A DNA stretch of 64,000 nt. Origin: a virus. Position numbers and translations under genes: made by a program. The stretch's first letter is position 1, and every line of letters begins with the position of its first letter. A model generated the notes under the pieces. It saw only the letters and a program-made list of their open reading frames with translations, did not search any database and was not told the origin of the DNA. Below are positions 1,856-59,002 of this stretch, piece by piece. The stretch lies in IMG/VR virus record IMGVR_UViG_3300020424_000003, positions 16,676-80,675 of that record, one strand, 5' to 3'.

Positions 1856-3748
1856 TTATTTGTCTTTACTAACTTCTTCAAAATCAGCATCAACTACATT
1901 GTCGTCCTTTGGTTTATCAGACTCTGTGTTTGCTTTTTGCTCTGATTCTTGTTGTTGCTTATAGATTGCTTCACCAAGTTTCATTGCACTTTGAGTCAAT
2001 GTTTCAGTTTTTGTTTTTATATCCTCTACATTTGACCCTTTTAATGCTTCTTTCAAATCATTAATATCAGACTCAACTTTAGTTTTATCTTCAGCTGATA
2101 ACTTATCTCCGTGTTCTTTAAGTTGTTTCTCTACATTATGAACCATTGCATCTGCATTGTTTCTTGTATCGATACCTTCACGTTTTTGTTTGTCAGCCTC
2201 CTTGTTTGCTTCTGCGTCTTTGACCATTTTGTCTATCTCAGACTCAGATAGTCCACCAGATGCTTGTATGGTTATCTTTTGTTCTTTGCCAGTGCCTTTG
2301 TCTTTTGCACTTACATTAACAATACCATTTGCATCAATATCAAATGTCACTTCAATTTGTGGCATTCCTCTTGGTGCTGGTGCGATTCCATCAAGTGTAA
2401 AGTTTCCTAATGGCTTGTTGTCTGCCGCCATTTCCCTTTCACCTTGTACAACACTAATTGTTACCGCTGGTTGATTATCCTCAGCAGTTGAAAACACCTG
2501 ACTTTTCTTTGTAGGAATAGTTGTGTTCTTTTCAATCAGTTTAGTTGCTACACCACCTAGTGTTTCAATACCTAAAGACAAAGGTGTTACATCTAACAAC
2601 AAGACATCTTTGACATCTCCTTGTAGTACTCCACCCTGTATAGCGGCACCTATTGCTACAACTTCATCTGGGTTTACACCTTTGTGAGGTTCCTTACCAA
2701 AGAAGTCTTGTACCAACTGTTGAACTTTAGGCATACGTGTCATACCACCTACTAAAATTACTTCGTCAATACCATTAGCAGATAGTTCTGCATCTTTAAG
2801 TGCTGTCTTACAAGGAACCAACGTTTTTTGAATCAAGTCTTCAACAAGAGATTCAAGTTTTGCTCTTGTCATCTTGATGTTTAAATGTTTAGGTCCACTT
2901 GCATCAGCAGTGATGAATGGTAAACTTATGTCAGTTTGTACTGCTGACGATAGTTCACACTTGGCCTTTTCAGCAGACTCTCTTACACGTTGTAATGCAA
3001 GATTATCTTTTGTTAGGTCAACACCTTGTTCTTTCTTGAACTCATCACAGATATAATTTACAATGGTGTTGTCAAAGTCTTCACCACCTAGTGAAGTGTC
3101 TCCGTTAGTAGACTTAACTTCAAATACACCATCTCCTATTTCAAGAATTGATATATCAAATGTTCCACCACCTAAATCATATACTGCAACTGTGCCTGAC
3201 TTTTTCTTGTCAAGTCCATAAGCAAGAGCGGCCGCAGTTGGTTCGTTTACTATACGTTCAACATCAAGTCCTGCAATCTTACCTGCGTCTTTGGTTGCTT
3301 GTCTTTGTGAATCATTGAAGTATGCTGGTACTGTGATTACTGCTTTCTTTACTTCACTGCCTAAATACTTTTCAGCAGTCTCTTTCATTTTTTGTAAAGT
3401 AAATGCAGATATCTGACTAGGAGAATAATCCTCGTCTTTTGCTTTTACCCAAGCATCTCCATTTGATGATTTAATTATTTTAAAGGGCGAAGTCTTAATA
3501 TCTTTTTGTACAGACTTGTCCTCATATTTTTTTCCTATTAGTCTTTTGACTGCGAAGATTGTGTTTTCTGGATTTGTCACTGCTTGTCTTTTTGCAGGAA
3601 CACCCACTAGCCTTTCATCGCCGAAAGCTACCACTGAAGGTGTTGTTCTTGCACCTTCTGTATTTTCTATTACCTTGGCGCTACCGCCTTCCATTACTGA
3701 TACGCAAGAATTGGTAGTACCTAAGTCAATACCGATTATTTTGCTCAT
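1856..3748 (-). CDS. dnaK: Chaperone DnaK (Hsp70)
   Basis: [28 protein letters not shown]; full length 630 aa. Confidence 0.99.
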
Positions 3749-12169: not shown

Positions 12170-12470
12170 AGTGCAACTTTTCTGTTGCTAGGTAAGTTGC
12201 CAACCCCGAGCGATTATGCCGCTAGGGCAAAATCCTCATTTACAACGGATTTCTGTTTACCGAAGTTAACAAAAGTCACGTTGTTTAGTGCATTATCGTT
12301 TGCATCTATACGTTTGTTCGCGTTAACCGAGCTTACATCCGGACAGTCTCCTTCAACCTTAACAAGCCAATCGATCCTAATTCCACCCCGTCGGGGGTAT
12401 ATTGAATTGGTGGAGTGGCCGGGAATTGCACCCGGGTCTTGCTCTTGTGACATACGTTGCTATCATCAAT
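12170..12470 (-). ncRNA. ssrA: Circularly permuted two-piece tmRNA; tag (A)ANDNALNNVTFVNFGKQKSVVNEDFALAA
   Basis: T-arm and CCACTCC-A-CCA (12408-12418) precede an 18-nt spacer and GGGGTGG (12383-12389), giving G3-U70; tag frame 12214-12303 ends LAA-stop; outer ends approximate. Confidence 0.9.
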
Positions 12471-12540
12471 TGCTATGTATTTATAGCCTTATTTGTATAG
12501 TATGCACTTAATTGTGATAACTAATGTCAAAGGATTAACA

Positions 12541-14407: not shown

Positions 14408-14692
14408 CTAGTGTGCATGGTTCATTCCGTGTTGTTCCATGTGTTCTACTAATTGTTCATACCCTCCTACATACTTACCGTGCAGTATTATCTGTGGAGC
14501 AGTTCTTGGCATAGGTAATCCGTTCACTTCAAACTCTTTCATAAGTGTTTCTACTTGGATATCCTTTCCAATAATGCTTTCCTGATATGGAATGTTCTTG
14601 CTTTGCAATAATGCTTTTGCTTTTACACAAGAAGGACAGTTAGGTTTACTATAGACGACGGTAGTGCTAGGAGTAGCTTGTCTAGTTTCCAT
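14408..14692 (-). CDS. Glutaredoxin
   Basis: CPSC, TAPQI, YVGGY; adjacent to nrdB. Confidence 0.9.
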   Translation of the reverse strand: METRQATPSTTVVYSKPNCPSCVKAKALLQSKNIPYQESIIGKDIQVETLMKEFEVNGLPMPRTAPQIILHGKYVGGYEQLVEHMEQHGMNHAH

Positions 14693-15795
14693 TATAATTT
14701 AAATCCTTTTAATTTATCTTTGTTTACGTCTTGTTTGATTCCGCCAACGATGTAGCTTTCAACTTCAGTTTCTTGTGGTGCAACCTGAAGTCCTGCTGAA
14801 CTCAACCAATGTTGTGTCCATGGTAAAGGGTTTTGTGTGGTTGGTGTATCAAAGATTGGTTTGTAACCTAATGCTTTTAATCTTCTATTGGCAATATATT
14901 CTACATAACTGCCTAACAGTCTTTCATTCAATCCAATGATTGATCCGTCTTTCATTAAGTATTTTGCCCAAGCCTTTTCTTCTTCAACACAGGCTTTCCA
15001 CATTTCATAAACTTCATCTTCACACTCTTTGGCAATCTTTGCCATGTCTGGATCATCTTCTCCACGCATCCAGTTCTTTAATACGTGTGAACTTAATGCA
15101 AGATGTTGTGCTTCATCTCTTGCAATCAAAGAAATAATCTTAGCTGAACCTTCCATAAGTTTCAGTTCGCCAAATGCAAAGGTACAAGCAAATGAAACAT
15201 AAAATCTTAAACCTTCTAAGATGTTTACGTTCATCATTGCTAGATACATTTTCTTTTTAACATCTAACATTGTGCCTTTTTTCAAATGTGTAAACTTGTC
15301 TGCGGCTTCTGTAAACGCATCATAGTTTTTGGTTACAGAAATAGCTCTTTCAATAATTTTGTCATCATCTAAAATAGTATCTAATACTTCACTTGGATCA
15401 GCATAGACATTTTTCATGATGTGTGTGTATGAACGTGAATGGATTGTTTCAAAGAAATCCCAAGTAACAATACAACCTTCTAGTTCTGGAATACTTACGT
15501 GTGGTAGAAAAGCCAAGCATGGACCTCTACCCTGTACACTATCTAATAGTGTTTGATATTTTAAGTTTGATGTGAATATATGTTTCTGTTCAGGACGAAA
15601 GTTCGCATAGTCTGATCTGTCTTTTTGCAGACTTACTTCTTCAGGTCTCCAAAAATAACCTAACATAGTTTGATTAAGTTTGTCAAACACAGGGAACTTG
15701 AATACATCATATCTCTGTGTGTTCTGGTCTGCTCCAAAAAACATATATTGCTTTGTGAAGTCAATTTTTTCTCTATTAAAAACTGTCTTTGCCAT
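14692..15795 (-). CDS. nrdB: Ribonucleotide reductase class Ia beta subunit
   Basis: FWRPEEV, ETIHSRSY, LEGLRFY, RDEAQH, VAPQETE. Confidence 0.97.
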   Translation of the reverse strand: MAKTVFNREKIDFTKQYMFFGADQNTQRYDVFKFPVFDKLNQTMLGYFWRPEEVSLQKDRSDYANFRPEQKHIFTSNLKYQTLLDSVQGRGPCLAFLPHVSIPELEGCIVTWDFFETIHSRSYTHIMKNVYADPSEVLDTILDDDKIIERAISVTKNYDAFTEAADKFTHLKKGTMLDVKKKMYLAMMNVNILEGLRFYVSFACTFAFGELKLMEGSAKIISLIARDEAQHLALSSHVLKNWMRGEDDPDMAKIAKECEDEVYEMWKACVEEEKAWAKYLMKDGSIIGLNERLLGSYVEYIANRRLKALGYKPIFDTPTTQNPLPWTQHWLSSAGLQVAPQETEVESYIVGGIKQDVNKDKLKGFKL

Positions 15796-15857: not shown

Positions 15858-18203
15858 TTAAATTGCACATGATTCACAAACTTCATCCTCATCTTCAGCC
15901 TTTACTTGACTGTCTGTTAAACCAACTTGTGGTTCAAATGGTTTTTCTTTATAAGCGATCTCAGTTTTGATTTCATCTTCACTAGGATCAGTCTTAAAGT
16001 CATATGTGTTTTGGTAATAAGAAGTTTTCCAACCATACTTATAAGTGGTTAGCATATCTTGTAGCATAACACTCATTGGCACTTCATTGTTTTCGAAGTG
16101 TGTAGGATTGTAACTCCAGTTACCTGAAATTGCCTGATCAAAAAACTTTTGCATCACTGCAACAATTTTTATATAACCCTCATTACTTGGCATATCCCAT
16201 AATAACGTATAGTTATTCTTTAACGTTTGATACTGTGGAACAATCTGCTTAAGAGGCCCTTTTTTTGACTTCTTAATGGACAAGAACCCTCTAGGTGGTT
16301 CGATTCCGTTTGTTGCGTTCGACACAATGGAACTGCTCTCCGAAGGCATCTGTGCGGACAATGTTGAGTGCCGTAGACCGTGAAGTCCAATGCTCTTGCG
16401 AAGATCATCCCAGTCATATTTTAACGTGATCGAACAAACTTCGTCCAGTTCCTTTTTGTATGTATCAATTGGTAATATACCATCACTGTATTTAGTACGA
16501 TCAAAATATTCACACTTGCCTTTTTCCTGTGCTAATTTATTACTTGCTACCAATAGATAGTATTGAAATGCTTCTGTTAGCTCATGCACTTTAGTAAGTG
16601 CTTTTTTATCATTATACTTAACACCATTCTTTGCAAGGTAATGTGCAAGTCCAATATATCCAACACCAAGACTTCTTCTTGCTTTGGTTGAAACTTCTGC
16701 GGCTTTCACAGGATAACGTTGGTAGTCAATAACTTCGTCTAATGCTCTAACTGCCAAGTCACATAAATCTTCTAACTCCTCAAGATCTTTTAATACACCA
16801 ACATTGATTGCAGATAAAATACAAAGTGCTATCTCACCGTCAGGATCATCAATGTGTTGCAATGGTTTAGTTGGCAAAGTAATCTCTTGGCAAAGGTTGC
16901 TCATGTAAACAGGATCTTTGAAAGAGCTGTGTGTGTTTGCATGATCAACATTCATGATATATATTCTTCCTGTTTCTGCACGTTCTTTTATTAATGCAGA
17001 AAACAATTCCATTGCTTTGATCTTCTTTTTCTTAATTGAAGTTTTGCGTTCATATTTTTCATACAGTTCTTGGAACTTTTCTTGATCTGCATAAAATGAA
17101 TCATATAACTCTGGAACATCATGTGGAGAAAATAAAGTTATCTCTTCGTCATTTAAAAGTCTTTCATACATGACTTTGTTTAATTGAATTGAATAATCTA
17201 ATCTTCTTACTCTGTTATCTTCTGTTCCTTTGTTATTCTTTAGCACTAGGATATCTTCTATCTCATAATGCCAAAAAGGAAAGTGTGTTGTTGCATTACC
17301 ACCACGTACTCCATTCTGTGTGCAACATCTTACAGTTGATTCGAATTTTTTAAGAAAAGGAATTACTCCTGTGTGTGCAACCTCACCACCTCTAATTTTA
17401 GAATTGATGGCTCTGATTCTTCCTGCATTGATTCCAATACCTGCTCTCTGTGCCGTGTATCTTCCTATGGCCATATCGCTAGAAAAAATGCTGTCAAGTG
17501 TATCATCTATGTCCACTAATACGCAAGAAGCAAATTGTCTCAACGGTGTTCTCACACCTGCCATAATGGGAGTAGGAATATTAATTTTAAATAATGATGT
17601 TGCGTCATAGTATCTTTTTACTATAGACATTCTTTTATCTTTAGGATAATCTGCAAATAGTGTTGCCGCAATCATCATGTACATCACTTGTGGTGATTCA
17701 TGTATGTCACCTGTGCTTCTATCTTGCACAAGATATTTGTCAACAATTTGTCTCAGTCCTGCATAGGTAAAATTTTCATCTCTACTATGTTTGATCCAAC
17801 TATTCAACTTCTTTAATTCTGTTTGTGTATATTTTTCTTTGATAGCAGGGTCGTATACGCCTCTATCAATATTTCTATCTATTATTTTTGTAAGCGGAAT
17901 AGGAGTGTATTGTCCAAACGTTTCTTTGTAAATCGGATATAACAACAATCGTGCCGCAACATATTGATAATTGGGGTTATCCAATGTGATCAAATCGTTA
18001 GATGATTTAATTAATATTTCTTGTATTTCTTCTGTTGACATTCCATCATAAAATTGTATGTTCGCAGTCATCTCAACTTGCGAAGCACTAACATTTGATA
18101 GTCCTTCACAGGCTTCTTCTACTACAAAATGAATTTTATTGATGTCTAATGGTACACTTGTTCCGTCACGTTTAATGATATGAATTCCGACGCCGTTTGA
18201 CAT
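15858..18203 (-). CDS. nrdA: Ribonucleotide reductase class Ia alpha subunit
   Basis: ATP cone, QFASCVL, SNLCQEI, TSYY, C-terminal CESC. Confidence 0.98.
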   Translation of the reverse strand: MSNGVGIHIIKRDGTSVPLDINKIHFVVEEACEGLSNVSASQVEMTANIQFYDGMSTEEIQEILIKSSNDLITLDNPNYQYVAARLLLYPIYKETFGQYTPIPLTKIIDRNIDRGVYDPAIKEKYTQTELKKLNSWIKHSRDENFTYAGLRQIVDKYLVQDRSTGDIHESPQVMYMMIAATLFADYPKDKRMSIVKRYYDATSLFKINIPTPIMAGVRTPLRQFASCVLVDIDDTLDSIFSSDMAIGRYTAQRAGIGINAGRIRAINSKIRGGEVAHTGVIPFLKKFESTVRCCTQNGVRGGNATTHFPFWHYEIEDILVLKNNKGTEDNRVRRLDYSIQLNKVMYERLLNDEEITLFSPHDVPELYDSFYADQEKFQELYEKYERKTSIKKKKIKAMELFSALIKERAETGRIYIMNVDHANTHSSFKDPVYMSNLCQEITLPTKPLQHIDDPDGEIALCILSAINVGVLKDLEELEDLCDLAVRALDEVIDYQRYPVKAAEVSTKARRSLGVGYIGLAHYLAKNGVKYNDKKALTKVHELTEAFQYYLLVASNKLAQEKGKCEYFDRTKYSDGILPIDTYKKELDEVCSITLKYDWDDLRKSIGLHGLRHSTLSAQMPSESSSIVSNATNGIEPPRGFLSIKKSKKGPLKQIVPQYQTLKNNYTLLWDMPSNEGYIKIVAVMQKFFDQAISGNWSYNPTHFENNEVPMSVMLQDMLTTYKYGWKTSYYQNTYDFKTDPSEDEIKTEIAYKEKPFEPQVGLTDSQVKAEDEDEVCESCAI

Positions 18204-18252
18204 TCTCAATAACTCCTGTTAATTTTTAATCTACTACGTGATGATATTGTAT

Positions 18253-55499: not shown

Positions 55500-55934
55500 A
55501 TGGCATTCAAGTTATCTCAGCATTGGAAGGACAAGATCAGAACACGAGCAATGATCAATCGTGGCATCAGTGATCAGGTCAAAGAGAATTACAGAGTAAA
55601 ATGGGATCACCCAGATTGGGACAAGGGAGAAAAGGTTGAAGAAAAGACCTTTGCAGATCTCGATGAAGCCAAGAAGTATGGTGCATGGGTGGCTCGTAAT
55701 TATGATCTCAGAAGAGAGGGCAAGGACGAGAATTCAATTGATGTTAGAACAGGATACAATCCGGTGCCAGAGCCAAGTTCAGTGGTGCCCATAGCAATTG
55801 AGACTCCATTCGGACTATTGGAGCTCACGGAGATCGATGTGTTTGGAGAAGATGCAGGTTCATGGAGCCTTGTTGATGCATTGGTCAAGACAGGTGAACG
55901 AAACAAGGTAGAAGACGATTTCAGATCAGGATAG
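55500..55934 (+). CDS. Hypothetical protein
   Basis: Downstream of TAAATA; AGGAG SD. Confidence 0.65.
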   Translation: MAFKLSQHWKDKIRTRAMINRGISDQVKENYRVKWDHPDWDKGEKVEEKTFADLDEAKKYGAWVARNYDLRREGKDENSIDVRTGYNPVPEPSSVVPIAIETPFGLLELTEIDVFGEDAGSWSLVDALVKTGERNKVEDDFRSG

Positions 55935-56140
55935 AGACAACGAGGCGAAAAAGCCATTTAGAGCCTACGGTCGGAAAGCCAAAATTTCAGACAGGGTAAG
56001 CCCTAGAGTGCGAAGCACGGACGGTCGCGATTTTTGTTCCGGAGTCTACGCCTCCTACACCAAAAGTCGCTCCGCTGATCCTAGAACCACCATACAAGCC
56101 ACCTTCGATGCCTCCGACATTCCTAGGAGTTTCTTTTACT

Positions 56141-56494
56141 ATGACTGACGATAAAGGACCTATGGTCTACTCTGTGGACGACGAAACAAAGGAGATTCTA
56201 ACAGAGTTCCTTAACCTTATAGAAGGCCTAGCAGACCTACAGATGACGGACGAAGCCACCGATGAACTACGACTCCTTAATCGTGATGTAGGAGCACGGT
56301 TCGGCATAGAATTCAGAGACATCGTGCTAGAGAGTGATGAAGATAGTGACGGCAATCCTAGGTTCACGGTTAAGAGTTATAGAGACAAAGTAGAGCTTGC
56401 CGATAAACGGCCTTCCTATTTGAAACTTGTTTCTGATAATGATGTGAAAGGTGCGCCTGATGGGGCAAGTAATGATGACGACAGGGTTGACTAG
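56141..56494 (+). CDS. Acidic hypothetical protein with RPSYLKLV motif
   Basis: AGGAG SD. Confidence 0.6.
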   Translation: MTDDKGPMVYSVDDETKEILTEFLNLIEGLADLQMTDEATDELRLLNRDVGARFGIEFRDIVLESDEDSDGNPRFTVKSYRDKVELADKRPSYLKLVSDNDVKGAPDGASNDDDRVD

Positions 56495-56664
56495 AGTGAA
56501 CCTACGGTGCGTCTATTGGCTCCTAGTCGCTTAACCACTCCTACCACACGCCAGGAAATTTAGATTTCTGTCTACCATTCCAATAGTAGAGTAAGGCCAC
56601 TTTCGTAGCCTTACACGGCTATGAACACCTAAATAAGTGCGAGGCCCCGCTGTGGAGTTCTAGA

Positions 56665-56835
56665 ATGATGAAGCAAGATGACATAAGATACCGTTGGTAC
56701 AAGAGTGATGACGCACGGTTTTGGATTGTGGATGAAGTCTTAGGCCATAATCTAGGCTTCTGTCGCAGTGAGTCAGTGGCTGAACGATTGTGTGAGAAGC
56801 TGAACCTACTTGAAATGGAAATCGTTTGGAATTGA
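56665..56835 (+). CDS. Hypothetical protein (56 aa; not in ORF track)
   Basis: TAAATA and GGAG upstream; MMKQDDIRYRWY. Confidence 0.5.
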   Translation: MMKQDDIRYRWYKSDDARFWIVDEVLGHNLGFCRSESVAERLCEKLNLLEMEIVWN

Positions 56836-57090
56836 TGGCAGAGTATGGCAACTATGCCTGTCGTCACCGTTCTCCCATGTTTGAAAAACATTTTTGAAAC
56901 CTATTGGAACCGTACAGAATTGGTTCAAAACCGTGATCCCATGGTGGCCTCGAGAGCTGGGGTCTGGGATGCCTCGGCCCCTACAAACCACATTTAAACG
57001 GTGGGGGTATAGTATAGCATCTGGGCTCTATTGTGTCAACCAAAATTTGGCCGCTCCGCCGGCCCCTATTACTATGTGGTCTTTGACCTC

Positions 57091-57162
57091 TTCACTGAGT
57101 GCTTCACTGTATAATGTTCACTAGGCTAGATCACTGCCGTGCTTCACTACGAGTGTTTCACT
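57091..57162. repeat. Six phased (T/A)TCACT repeats
   Basis: At 57091, 57103, 57117, 57130, 57143, 57157. Confidence 0.7.
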
Positions 57163-57167
57163 GATGC

Positions 57168-57358
57168 TTATTTCTTCTTTGGATTGGTTGATGTGGATTC
57201 GCCCCAGATTCTTCTGAGATTCAAGATGATCTCTTTGGTCTCATCAATGCTTCCCGGTTCTGGATTCTTCAGACCTAAGTCCTTGAAATCTTTGGCTTTT
57301 TTGGACCTCTTGAGATCATCCTTAATGGATTTCTTAAAAGGTGGGTTCTTCAGTCTCA
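57168..57358 (-). CDS. Small basic protein
   Basis: Near-leaderless ATG after a reverse TTGAC promoter. Confidence 0.45.
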
Positions 57359-57443
57359 TAGTGTATATTTTAATCCTAGAAGTCAATAAAGTCAAGAGGT
57401 TATGTCGCCAAAATCCTGTTCTTCAGAGTCTCGTTTGGTATCA

Positions 57444-57491
57444 TCACTATATGTTGTGATCTATACCTGGGGCCGACACTAGATGTTGTGG
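57444..57491. promoter_or_regulatory. Tandem NrdR boxes
   Basis: TCACTATATGTTGTGA (57444) and ACACTAGATGTTGTGG (57476), 32 bp apart; consensus acaCwAtATaTwGtgt. Confidence 0.75.
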
Positions 57492-57673
57492 CCTGATGCT
57501 GAGGTCAGAGTTCGGCCCACCCTTTGAGTATCGAAGTGTCTGTGCCCTGGTTTGATCTAACCTTACTCTTTTTTTGGTGAGCGGGTCTGGTGTTTGCTCC
57601 GGCTTATACTATTATAATATGATCAGAGGTGAGATTTGTCAACCATTATCTGCATTTTGGCCCCATCTTTTTT

Positions 57674-57689
57674 TGACTATATGTTGTGG
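57674..57689. promoter_or_regulatory. Third NrdR-like box
   Basis: TGACTATATGTTGTGG. Confidence 0.6.
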
Positions 57690-57870
57690 TGGGAGGGGTG
57701 GTCAGACACAAGAGGAATTTCGCCCATCGGGAGCGTAGTTTATTATAACATATTTTGGTGAGGTTGTCAACCAAAAAAAGATTGAAAAAAAGATAAAAAA
57801 ATGGTTGACCTTTTGGATAGATGGTGCTATTATCAAAGTATAATAAAAAACAACGCCAAAGGAGGGCTAC

Positions 57871-58224
57871 ATGGCAGATCGTAAAATCACACTTAATAAA
57901 ACATTCACCGTTGACCTAGCTGGTGACAGCATATGGGACAAGGAGAGAACCATCAACCCCAAGAGTGTTGAGGTCACAGGGATCACCCTAAGAGAGTCAG
58001 ATTATGGTGATGGAGACGTCTACTGGGACGCAACGATCACACATGATGGTCCCTGGGAGATCTACACAGACACAGGGTTCACCAAAGGGATCATGGAATT
58101 GCTGGGTCCTGGTTGGGAGGGAGACTTCTCAGAACAGGGAATGCAACAGGATGGTCTAGCCCATTTTGACATCCATTCTCACCCATATGAGATAAAAAAT
58201 CCGCTAGAATTGGAGGCAAATTAG
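57871..58224 (+). CDS. Hypothetical early protein
   Basis: WEIYTDTGF...FSEQGMQ. Confidence 0.7.
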   Translation: MADRKITLNKTFTVDLAGDSIWDKERTINPKSVEVTGITLRESDYGDGDVYWDATITHDGPWEIYTDTGFTKGIMELLGPGWEGDFSEQGMQQDGLAHFDIHSHPYEIKNPLELEAN

Positions 58225-58277
58225 GGGTTGACAAATCCCTAATTTGGTGATATATTAATAGTATGAAAGAGGGCAAA

Positions 58278-58934
58278 ATGAAAAAAACACTATTCGCAAC
58301 CGTCCTACTCGCAGGTATGGCAAGTTCAGGGGTGGCCGCAGACAAATTAAAATCATTCGATCACGCCGCGGAGTTGACTTCGCAGGCCAAGACCATATTA
58401 TTTCAAGAATTAAACACCGCAGACGTTCCCAACACAGACCACCAGCAGATTGTATGCCTTGCTGAGAACATCTACTTTGAAGCCAGAGCAGAGAGCATGG
58501 AAGGCAAGGCCGCAGTCGCGAATGTCACAAGGAACAGGGTTGAGGACAAGAGATGGCCTGGTACCTACTGTGAAGTGGTACAACAGGGACCAGTGAGGGA
58601 GAGTTGGAAGACCAAACAACACGCCGACCTACCCGATGATCAGAGAGTTTATTATCCTAGGAAACACAGATGCCAGTTCAGTTGGTATTGTGATGGCAAG
58701 AAGGACATCATATGGGCCAACAAGGAGAAATCAGGTCTGACCATAGAAGGTAATGCAAGGGCCTGGAGAGAAGCAGTGAGAATCTCCATATATGTGCATG
58801 GCCATGGTGGATTCAGGGTCAACGACAACACCAAGGGGGCTGTGTATTATTATGCCCACAATTTGGTATATCCTACATGGGCAGATCAGAAGGATTTAAC
58901 CGTGATCATTGGAAATCACACTTTTATGAAATAA
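58278..58934 (+). CDS. SleB/Hydrolase_2-family cell-wall hydrolase
   Basis: Signal peptide; CLAENIYFEARAE, VANVTRNRV, CQFSWYCDG, IGNHTF. Confidence 0.9.
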   Translation: MKKTLFATVLLAGMASSGVAADKLKSFDHAAELTSQAKTILFQELNTADVPNTDHQQIVCLAENIYFEARAESMEGKAAVANVTRNRVEDKRWPGTYCEVVQQGPVRESWKTKQHADLPDDQRVYYPRKHRCQFSWYCDGKKDIIWANKEKSGLTIEGNARAWREAVRISIYVHGHGGFRVNDNTKGAVYYYAHNLVYPTWADQKDLTVIIGNHTFMK

Positions 58935-59002
58935 ATGGTTGACAAACCGAATAATTGGATATATTATAATAGTATAATGAAACAACAAACAAGAGAGGGC
59001 AA

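Follow-up and report, generated by a model that had tools for sequence, protein, structure and literature searches.

Here, we show that a non-coding control locus of a marine jumbo phage carries three 16-bp NrdR-type boxes, all of them away from the nrd genes. NrdR is a Zn-ribbon/ATP-cone repressor that senses ATP and dATP. We hold with about even confidence that the boxes, which lie in the early control region, are operators for the NrdR of the host. To judge by the sequence, the phage probably ties its early transcription to the dATP/ATP state of the host through these putative NrdR sites. What is particular to the locus is that these sites are coupled, at fixed offsets, to a predicted, conserved small RNA (sRNA) with an invariant core.

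The DNA analysed (the window) makes up the final 64 kb of an 80.7-kb IMG/VR record (G000), and because CheckV rates that record as 22% complete, we take it to come from a jumbo phage. The window encodes a class Ia ribonucleotide reductase (RNR; nrdA, 15858–18209, and nrdB, 14692–15795, both on the minus strand), a full-length DnaK (1856–3748, minus strand) about 65% identical to gammaproteobacterial DnaK, seven tRNAs, and a permuted tmRNA (12170–12524, minus strand) that matches the alphaproteobacterial tmRNA model of Rfam (RF01849) with 96 bits. DNA of the locus was found in marine metagenomes of 11 studies and in metatranscriptome assemblies. Using the 30-nt core that adjoins box 2, we gathered 73 distinct relatives of the locus. 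The relatives of the phage are marine without exception, and one of them, G006, is complete (328,149 bp, with terminal repeats). Searches of phage collections with the locus DNA and with the product of a neighbouring 117-aa gene gave no match, and tblastn with DnaK gave distant matches only, with no close relative of the phage among them.

Boxes 1 (57444–57459, TCACTATATGTTGTGA) and 2 (57476–57491, ACACTAGATGTTGTGG) are separated by a 16-bp spacer (57460–57475), for a start-to-start distance of 32 bp; box 3 (TGACTATATGTTGTGG) lies further on, at 57674–57689. An earlier note on this DNA had placed three boxes at these positions, the first two 32 bp apart, and we find them there. In known NrdR operators, six positions of the 16-bp box are highly conserved (C4, A6, A8, T9, T11 and G13), the A+T content between C4 and G13 is at least 63% (PMC13584703), and the two boxes of a pair are separated by 14–18 bp (15–16 bp being typical and optimal) or by 24–27 bp (PMC12051234, PMC13584703). 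All three phage boxes have six of the six conserved positions, and their A+T content between C4 and G13 (7/8, or 88%, in box 1; 6/8, or 75%, in box 2; 7/8 in box 3) is above the minimum, while the spacer of the pair formed by boxes 1 and 2 is of permitted length. Box 3 is followed, after another 16-bp spacer, by a degenerate partner (57706–57721, ACACAAGAGGAATTTC; 32 bp from box start to half-box start) that retains the left half-site only and falls outside the box definition because G13 and T9 are missing. The boxes do not lie in the promoter of an RNR operon. The phage nrdAB genes are real and about 39 kb distant, and a six-position scan of the window returned no box upstream of them, in agreement with the earlier note.

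Several counts indicate that the boxes stand out from the background. A 12-mer common to them, CTAKATGTTGTG, occurs exactly three times in the 64 kb, always at the locus; with one mismatch allowed there are five matches versus 0.79 expected, a number reached in none of 100 shuffles. A strict filter (the six core positions, W at positions 5 and 12, and at least three of four CA/TG flanks) yields three matches in the 80.7-kb record, all at the locus, versus 0.40 in shuffles. The loosest published rule (six positions; spacer of 14–18 or 24–27 bp) picks out a single pair in the window, boxes 1 and 2, and 17 pairs altogether in 300 shuffles, or 0.057 per shuffle. Matches to the plain 16-mer consensus with up to three mismatches are unenriched, both in the window (3 versus 1.76 expected) and in the A+T-rich 328-kb relative (13 versus 20 in shuffles); it is the position-weighted filter alone that discriminates the boxes from background.

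Boxes recur across the relatives, many of the 73 having them at fixed offsets from the core. In the window type, boxes are found at −62 and −30 from the core (32-bp spacing), with box 2 starting 30 nt before the CAGAG of the core, and a box at this same −30 offset recurs in several sub-families of relatives. The commonest arrangement, seen in a large group of relatives, has boxes at −51 and −30, or 21 bp start-to-start with a 5-bp spacer; other relatives have further boxes at −84, −116/−129 and −150. The conservation profile was taken from 23 distinct relatives chosen only by C4 and G13 of the −51 box. In these, A6, A8, T9 and T14 are invariant, T11 and A3 are each present in 21 of 23 and C2 in 19 of 23, positions 5 and 12 are A or T, and positions 1, 7, 10 and 16 and both flanks are essentially free. 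This per-position profile is that of the published NrdR logo. A profile of the equivalent box that matches the logo between freely varying flanks shows that the boxes are no chance repeats. Within a box, positions 5/12 and 7/10 are frequently non-complementary, which points to constraint on a DNA site rather than on an RNA hairpin.

Canonical spacing also recurs. Spacers of 15 bp are found in L024 (5410/5441) and in G006 (303586/303617), a 17-bp spacer occurs in G006 (127938/127971), and 16-bp spacers are found inside four-box clusters of L024 and L333. In L024 and at 303.6 kb of G006, canonical pairs lie 10–22 bp upstream of σ70-type promoters. Clusters of five to six boxes occur at the locus in relatives, and of the seven strict boxes in the 328-kb genome of G006, five fall within the homologous 0.7-kb locus. 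The four-box clusters, found in two other marine phages, fall within the coding sequence of a homologous gene, towards its 5′ end (L024 1601–1679, L333 1485–1565); there, the order is box-box, 16-nt linker, box-box, and the clusters encode QDLV-like repeats. Among the closest relatives, box 1 is kept in L001/L123, L238 and L295. In L238 both box 1 and box 2 are kept, though the sequence of the spacer differs, and in L001, the closest of all, the DNA spanning box 1 and the minus-strand promoter is nearly identical and the adjacent small gene is about 84% identical. A full box 3 is present at a fixed place (35–39 nt from GTCAA) in 12 distinct relatives, as nine sequence variants, and relatives with box 3 keep the half-box CCACAAG(Y)GGAA after a 16-nt linker; L001 lacks both box 3 and the second leftward promoter. 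The NrdR-type identity that the earlier note had proposed therefore holds in silico, by sequence, spacer, A+T content, logo-like conservation and the 15–17-bp spacers of relatives. A plus-strand promoter embedded in the boxes was considered as a general explanation and rejected: it fits some of the relatives with 21-bp spacing (TAGATA-17-TATAAT in L105), not the 32-bp pair of the window.

The boxes bracket a gene for a structured sRNA, box 3 lying upstream of its promoter and boxes 2 and 1 past its 3′ side. The sRNA (57495–57607, minus strand; ends approximate) has three helices with compensatory changes (57601–57597/57536–57532, 57582–57579/57568–57565 and 57562–57559/57552–57549). Its 3′ domain is an invariant 30-nt core (57503–57533, minus strand; the plus strand reads GGTCAGAGTTCGGCCCAnCCTTTGAGTAnCG), identical, save at the n positions of the motif, in 59 aligned distinct relatives. 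Box 2 starts 11 nt past the core. A scan for the core found it in 111 metagenome stretches, and it is identical in more than 70 marine contigs. RNAalifold, run on the minus strand of 15 relatives, gives four pairs with compensatory changes and 20 cells changed on both sides, with 99.3% of cells paired. The covariation score is 0.214, versus 0.101 in shuffles, none of 500 of which reaches 0.214, and slid controls score about 0. On the plus strand, RNAalifold returns the invariant core hairpin only, with no covariation. The sRNA is evidently a product of the minus strand, because invariant G-U pairs become A-C on the other.

As far as alignments and folding can tell, this sRNA is newly recognised here, and RNAs with the invariant core are widespread in marine jumbo phages. 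A cmscan of 55500–59000 against Rfam (E up to 1) gave no family for it, only a chance snoRNA match (20 bits versus a gathering score of 44), and no copy of the core was found in five candidate host genomes. The sRNA can do without the boxes, since relatives of the L002 type and L101 keep it with none on the 3′ side. The earlier note's claim that the locus is non-coding is borne out: no ORF conserved among relatives runs through it, and the indels that separate relatives have lengths not divisible by three. We also considered the core as protein-coding and rejected this, since no start codon is present in the frame that would put the variable base at a wobble position, and the plus-strand ATG is not kept across relatives. 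Contigs from four RNA-seq runs of three studies cover the locus, and carry neither strand nor ends. Contig breaks at 57502 and 57534 might be taken for transcript ends; they reflect strain branching at the invariant core.

A promoter scan of 56400–58000 revealed four minus-strand promoters and one plus-strand promoter of σ70 type. The two reverse promoters named in the earlier note, at 57770–57742 and 57642–57614 on the minus strand, are real consensus matches. The latter (57614–57642; TTGACA-17-TATTAT, 11/12 consensus) serves the sRNA; its −35 and −10 are conserved in all 59 aligned relatives, and box 3 sits 31 bp upstream of its −35. The former, the second leftward promoter (57742–57770), is the stronger of the two (TTGACA-17-TATAAT, 12/12), and its transcript would cross the half-box and box 3. 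That transcript would open with a conserved hairpin, GCUCCCGAUGGGCG (57722–57736, minus strand); the plus-strand GCCCATCGGGAGCG at the same positions is kept in many relatives, including ones without box 3. A third leftward promoter (57367–57395, minus strand; TTGACT-17-TAAAAT) lies 48 bp beyond box 1, and its hexamers are conserved in L001 and L002, the former having an 11-bp indel between promoter and box 1. The single rightward promoter (57805–57833, plus strand) serves the 117-aa gene (57871–58224) and a cell-wall hydrolase gene (58263–58934).

Beyond the third leftward promoter lies a near-leaderless gene for a small basic protein of 63 aa (57168–57359, minus strand), for which tblastn finds 53–82% identity in relatives of the window type. 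It has an in-frame 24-nt insertion in L002, and the protein has no Pfam match. Just beyond this gene are six TTCACT(G/A) iterons with 12–14-bp spacing (57090–57165); the equivalent region of G006 has eleven CTCAAAG iterons with 10–11-bp spacing (L022 260–360). Such arrays could mark an origin or an operator of the small basic protein. Further along, a fourth leftward promoter (57039–57011, minus strand; TTGACA-17-TATACT) fires into a conserved G+C-rich stretch (56936–57069); a terminator-like hairpin (57064–57049) lies just upstream. The summed depth of RNA contigs from run X16 over 56936–57069 is several-fold above that of the adjacent DNA, and the stretch may be a second small RNA.

We infer from these features that NrdR would bind the boxes, and every regulatory consequence set out here follows from that supposition. 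Leftward transcription may proceed as a cascade, from the promoter at 57770 across the half-box and box 3 to the promoter at 57642, through the sRNA and across box 2 and box 1, and then from the promoter at 57395 through the 63-aa basic protein gene to the iterons. When dATP is relatively high, an NrdR tetramer would occupy the pairs, and the bound repressor could block read-through from the upstream promoter, repress the next promoter, or both. As replication drains dATP, or as copies of the phage genome come to outnumber NrdR, the sites would clear and leftward transcription would run on. Titration of NrdR off host nrd promoters would then be an automatic by-product of phage genome amplification. 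The positions of the boxes, fixed between successive leftward promoters, argue for a role in cis.

A more specific proposal joins the NrdR pairs and the invariant-core sRNA in a single switch. Bound 11 nt past the core, NrdR would act as a dATP-dependent roadblock, choosing between a discrete sRNA made from the promoter at 57642 and read-through into the small basic protein gene and the iterons. We think this proposal rather improbable as it stands. If it is true, a widespread lineage of marine jumbo phages has a direct read-out of host dNTP status, one that sets the moment at which early functions give way to replication or late functions.

Some of our observations count against reading the boxes as NrdR operators at all. 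No nrd gene, the usual defining context, lies near them, and the partner of box 3 is without G13. In the window, the boxes lie about 50–130 bp from the hexamers of the strong promoters, with no overlap. The 5-bp spacer common in relatives also weighs against it, because binding studies covered 12–27-bp spacers only, and those of 12–13 bp were bound poorly (PMC12051234). A rival idea is that the boxes are operators of a phage-encoded DNA-binding protein, either an early regulator or an origin-binding protein, and that their likeness to NrdR sites arose by convergence, or as mimicry in competition with NrdR. In its favour, phage control regions are where the motif clusters, and it does so even within a phage gene, in the 5′ part of the coding sequence; the 21-bp spacing, common in relatives, is non-canonical for NrdR; and close by are iterons and the gene of a small basic protein. 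Set against this, the per-position conservation is that of the NrdR logo, 15–17-bp spacers recur, the complete relative has no NrdR-like gene, and candidate host nrd promoters have near-identical boxes. The 63-aa protein is an unlikely binder, because a homologue is undetectable in G006, L105 and L024, all of which have boxes. Overall, we judge a phage-encoded binder to be fairly unlikely.

Two other explanations accept that NrdR binds the boxes and differ as to what follows. The earlier note had offered, side by side, a decoy that titrates NrdR and a gate on the adjacent reverse promoters. Gating fits better, given the fixed offsets to a conserved promoter and sRNA and the pairs found elsewhere 10–22 bp upstream of σ70-type promoters; for the decoy, the data speak neither in favour nor against decisively. 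Were the decoy the primary function, the boxes would soak up NrdR as phage DNA replicates, derepress host RNR and boost dNTPs, and their position among promoters would be incidental. Their distance from nrd genes, the box-free phage nrdAB and the five- to six-box clusters of relatives are consistent with such a function, and titration follows arithmetically from genome amplification once NrdR binds. However, the window holds one full pair and one box-and-half pair only (about 1.5 pairs), and a pure decoy needs neither offsets from the sRNA core and promoter that stay fixed across diverged relatives nor the close abutment of pairs to σ70-type promoters seen elsewhere. We consider it quite unlikely that the boxes serve chiefly as a sink. 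It has also to be asked whether the locus is a replication origin that the promoter-driven structured RNA primes or opens, much as at T4 oriF/oriG or in ColE1; an initiator would then bind the iterons, and the boxes would make initiation depend on dNTP status. The strong promoters, the invariant 30-nt core and the non-coding nature of this hub would suit an origin, as would, circumstantially, the adjoining iterons (TTCACT six times in the window, CTCAAAG eleven times in G006). Nonetheless, the minimum of the cumulative GC skew lies near 34–36 kb, not at the locus, no initiator gene was identified, and the conserved fold is typical of a regulatory RNA acting in trans or in cis. The polarity would be odd as well, as NrdR binding occurs at high dATP. 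An origin seems very unlikely to us.

Control of early transcription by host NrdR, the reading we prefer, calls for a repressor supplied by the host. The phage record and five relatives, of which G006 is complete, yielded no nrdR gene. NrdR is encoded in all five marine candidate host genomes tested. These five genomes (two 'Rickettsiales' MAGs, a SAR116, a Rhodobacterales and a Prochlorococcus) were reached via mis-binned phage contigs. The alphaproteobacterial type of the tmRNA points to an alphaproteobacterial host. Two of the five candidate host genomes are low-GC alphaproteobacterial MAGs; there, a box, TTACTATATGTAGTAT or TTACTATATATAGTAC, covers the −10 of the class I RNR promoter, and in both a partner box lies 31 bp upstream, over the −35. 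By sequence comparison, these putative host operators are close matches to the boxes of the phage. Few clean pairs emerged from a consensus scan of 29 alphaproteobacterial RNR loci, a sample that includes the unpublished genome G048, on which none of our conclusions depends. Relatives of the phage NrdA were discarded as a pointer to the host; they are mostly phage contigs mis-binned into MAGs, and hence indicate no host. Separately, a DNA run from 2018 (X3), labelled with an organism name and not as 'metagenome', contains 96% of the words of the locus (56900–58300); the sample could be a culture or a single cell, and is a possible clue to the host.

The closest known systems are bacterial NrdR operators, namely those of E. 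coli nrdAB, nrdHIEF and nrdDG, S. coelicolor nrdAB and nrdRJ, and L. monocytogenes nrdAB, the last with two pairs (PMC13584703, PMC12051234). Like them, the phage locus has a 16-bp, partly palindromic box with C4, A6, A8, T9, T11 and G13, an A+T-rich centre, and a pair with a non-conserved spacer of 15–16 bp, and more than one pair per control region is possible. In S. pneumoniae nrdHEF, the NrdR pair lies upstream of the −35, a further likeness to the phage (PMC13584703, PMC12051234). Unlike bacterial operators, the phage boxes are 39 kb from the phage's own nrdAB, flank sRNA and small protein genes, and sit between tandem promoters, not over one; relatives often have a 5-bp spacer; and the repressor must be that of the host.

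DNA-bound repressors such as LacI, CodY and CcpA can act as roadblocks, in that a repressor bound downstream of the start can stop or truncate transcripts. Bound NrdR could, in like manner, set the 3′ end of the sRNA or prevent read-through, an analogy that extends to mechanism only.

NrdR has so far been described as a repressor specific to RNR genes, and recent surveys covered RNR promoters only. Our literature search turned up no account of phage NrdR operators at a distance from nrd genes. If phages do put such operators into control regions of their own, NrdR is also a signalling channel through which they could read or distort the dATP/ATP ratio of the cell. This would matter for the timing of replication and late expression in large phages, and for the nucleotide economics of ocean bacteria. 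The locus is a good test case, as it offers a canonical pair, more than 70 distinct natural variants, and a conserved sRNA with an invariant 30-nt core.

Finally, we note box-like sequences in two other settings. Two marine alphaproteobacterial MAGs have a perfect six-position pair with TTGACA between the boxes (L334, G001:C20:61761–61801; L336, G004:C27:79215–79255), upstream of a gene for an FAD/NAD-binding oxidoreductase-like protein and not of nrd. This gene could be an unrecognised member of the NrdR regulon, or the pair may be due to chance in A+T-rich DNA. T4-like marine phages have single near-consensus boxes (ACGCAATATATAGTGT after TATAAATA), which we rejected as NrdR pairs because they are part of a conserved leader hairpin. 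In this leader, the late promoter TATAAATA is followed by ATGGAA, the box ACGCAATATATAGTGT, TTCCAT, and then a gene whose product starts MAKQKDIT. The arrangement, which looks like an RNA hairpin, is found in L027, L031, L033–L036, L038, L041, L042, L053 and L076, about 1–2 kb from the hydrolase match.
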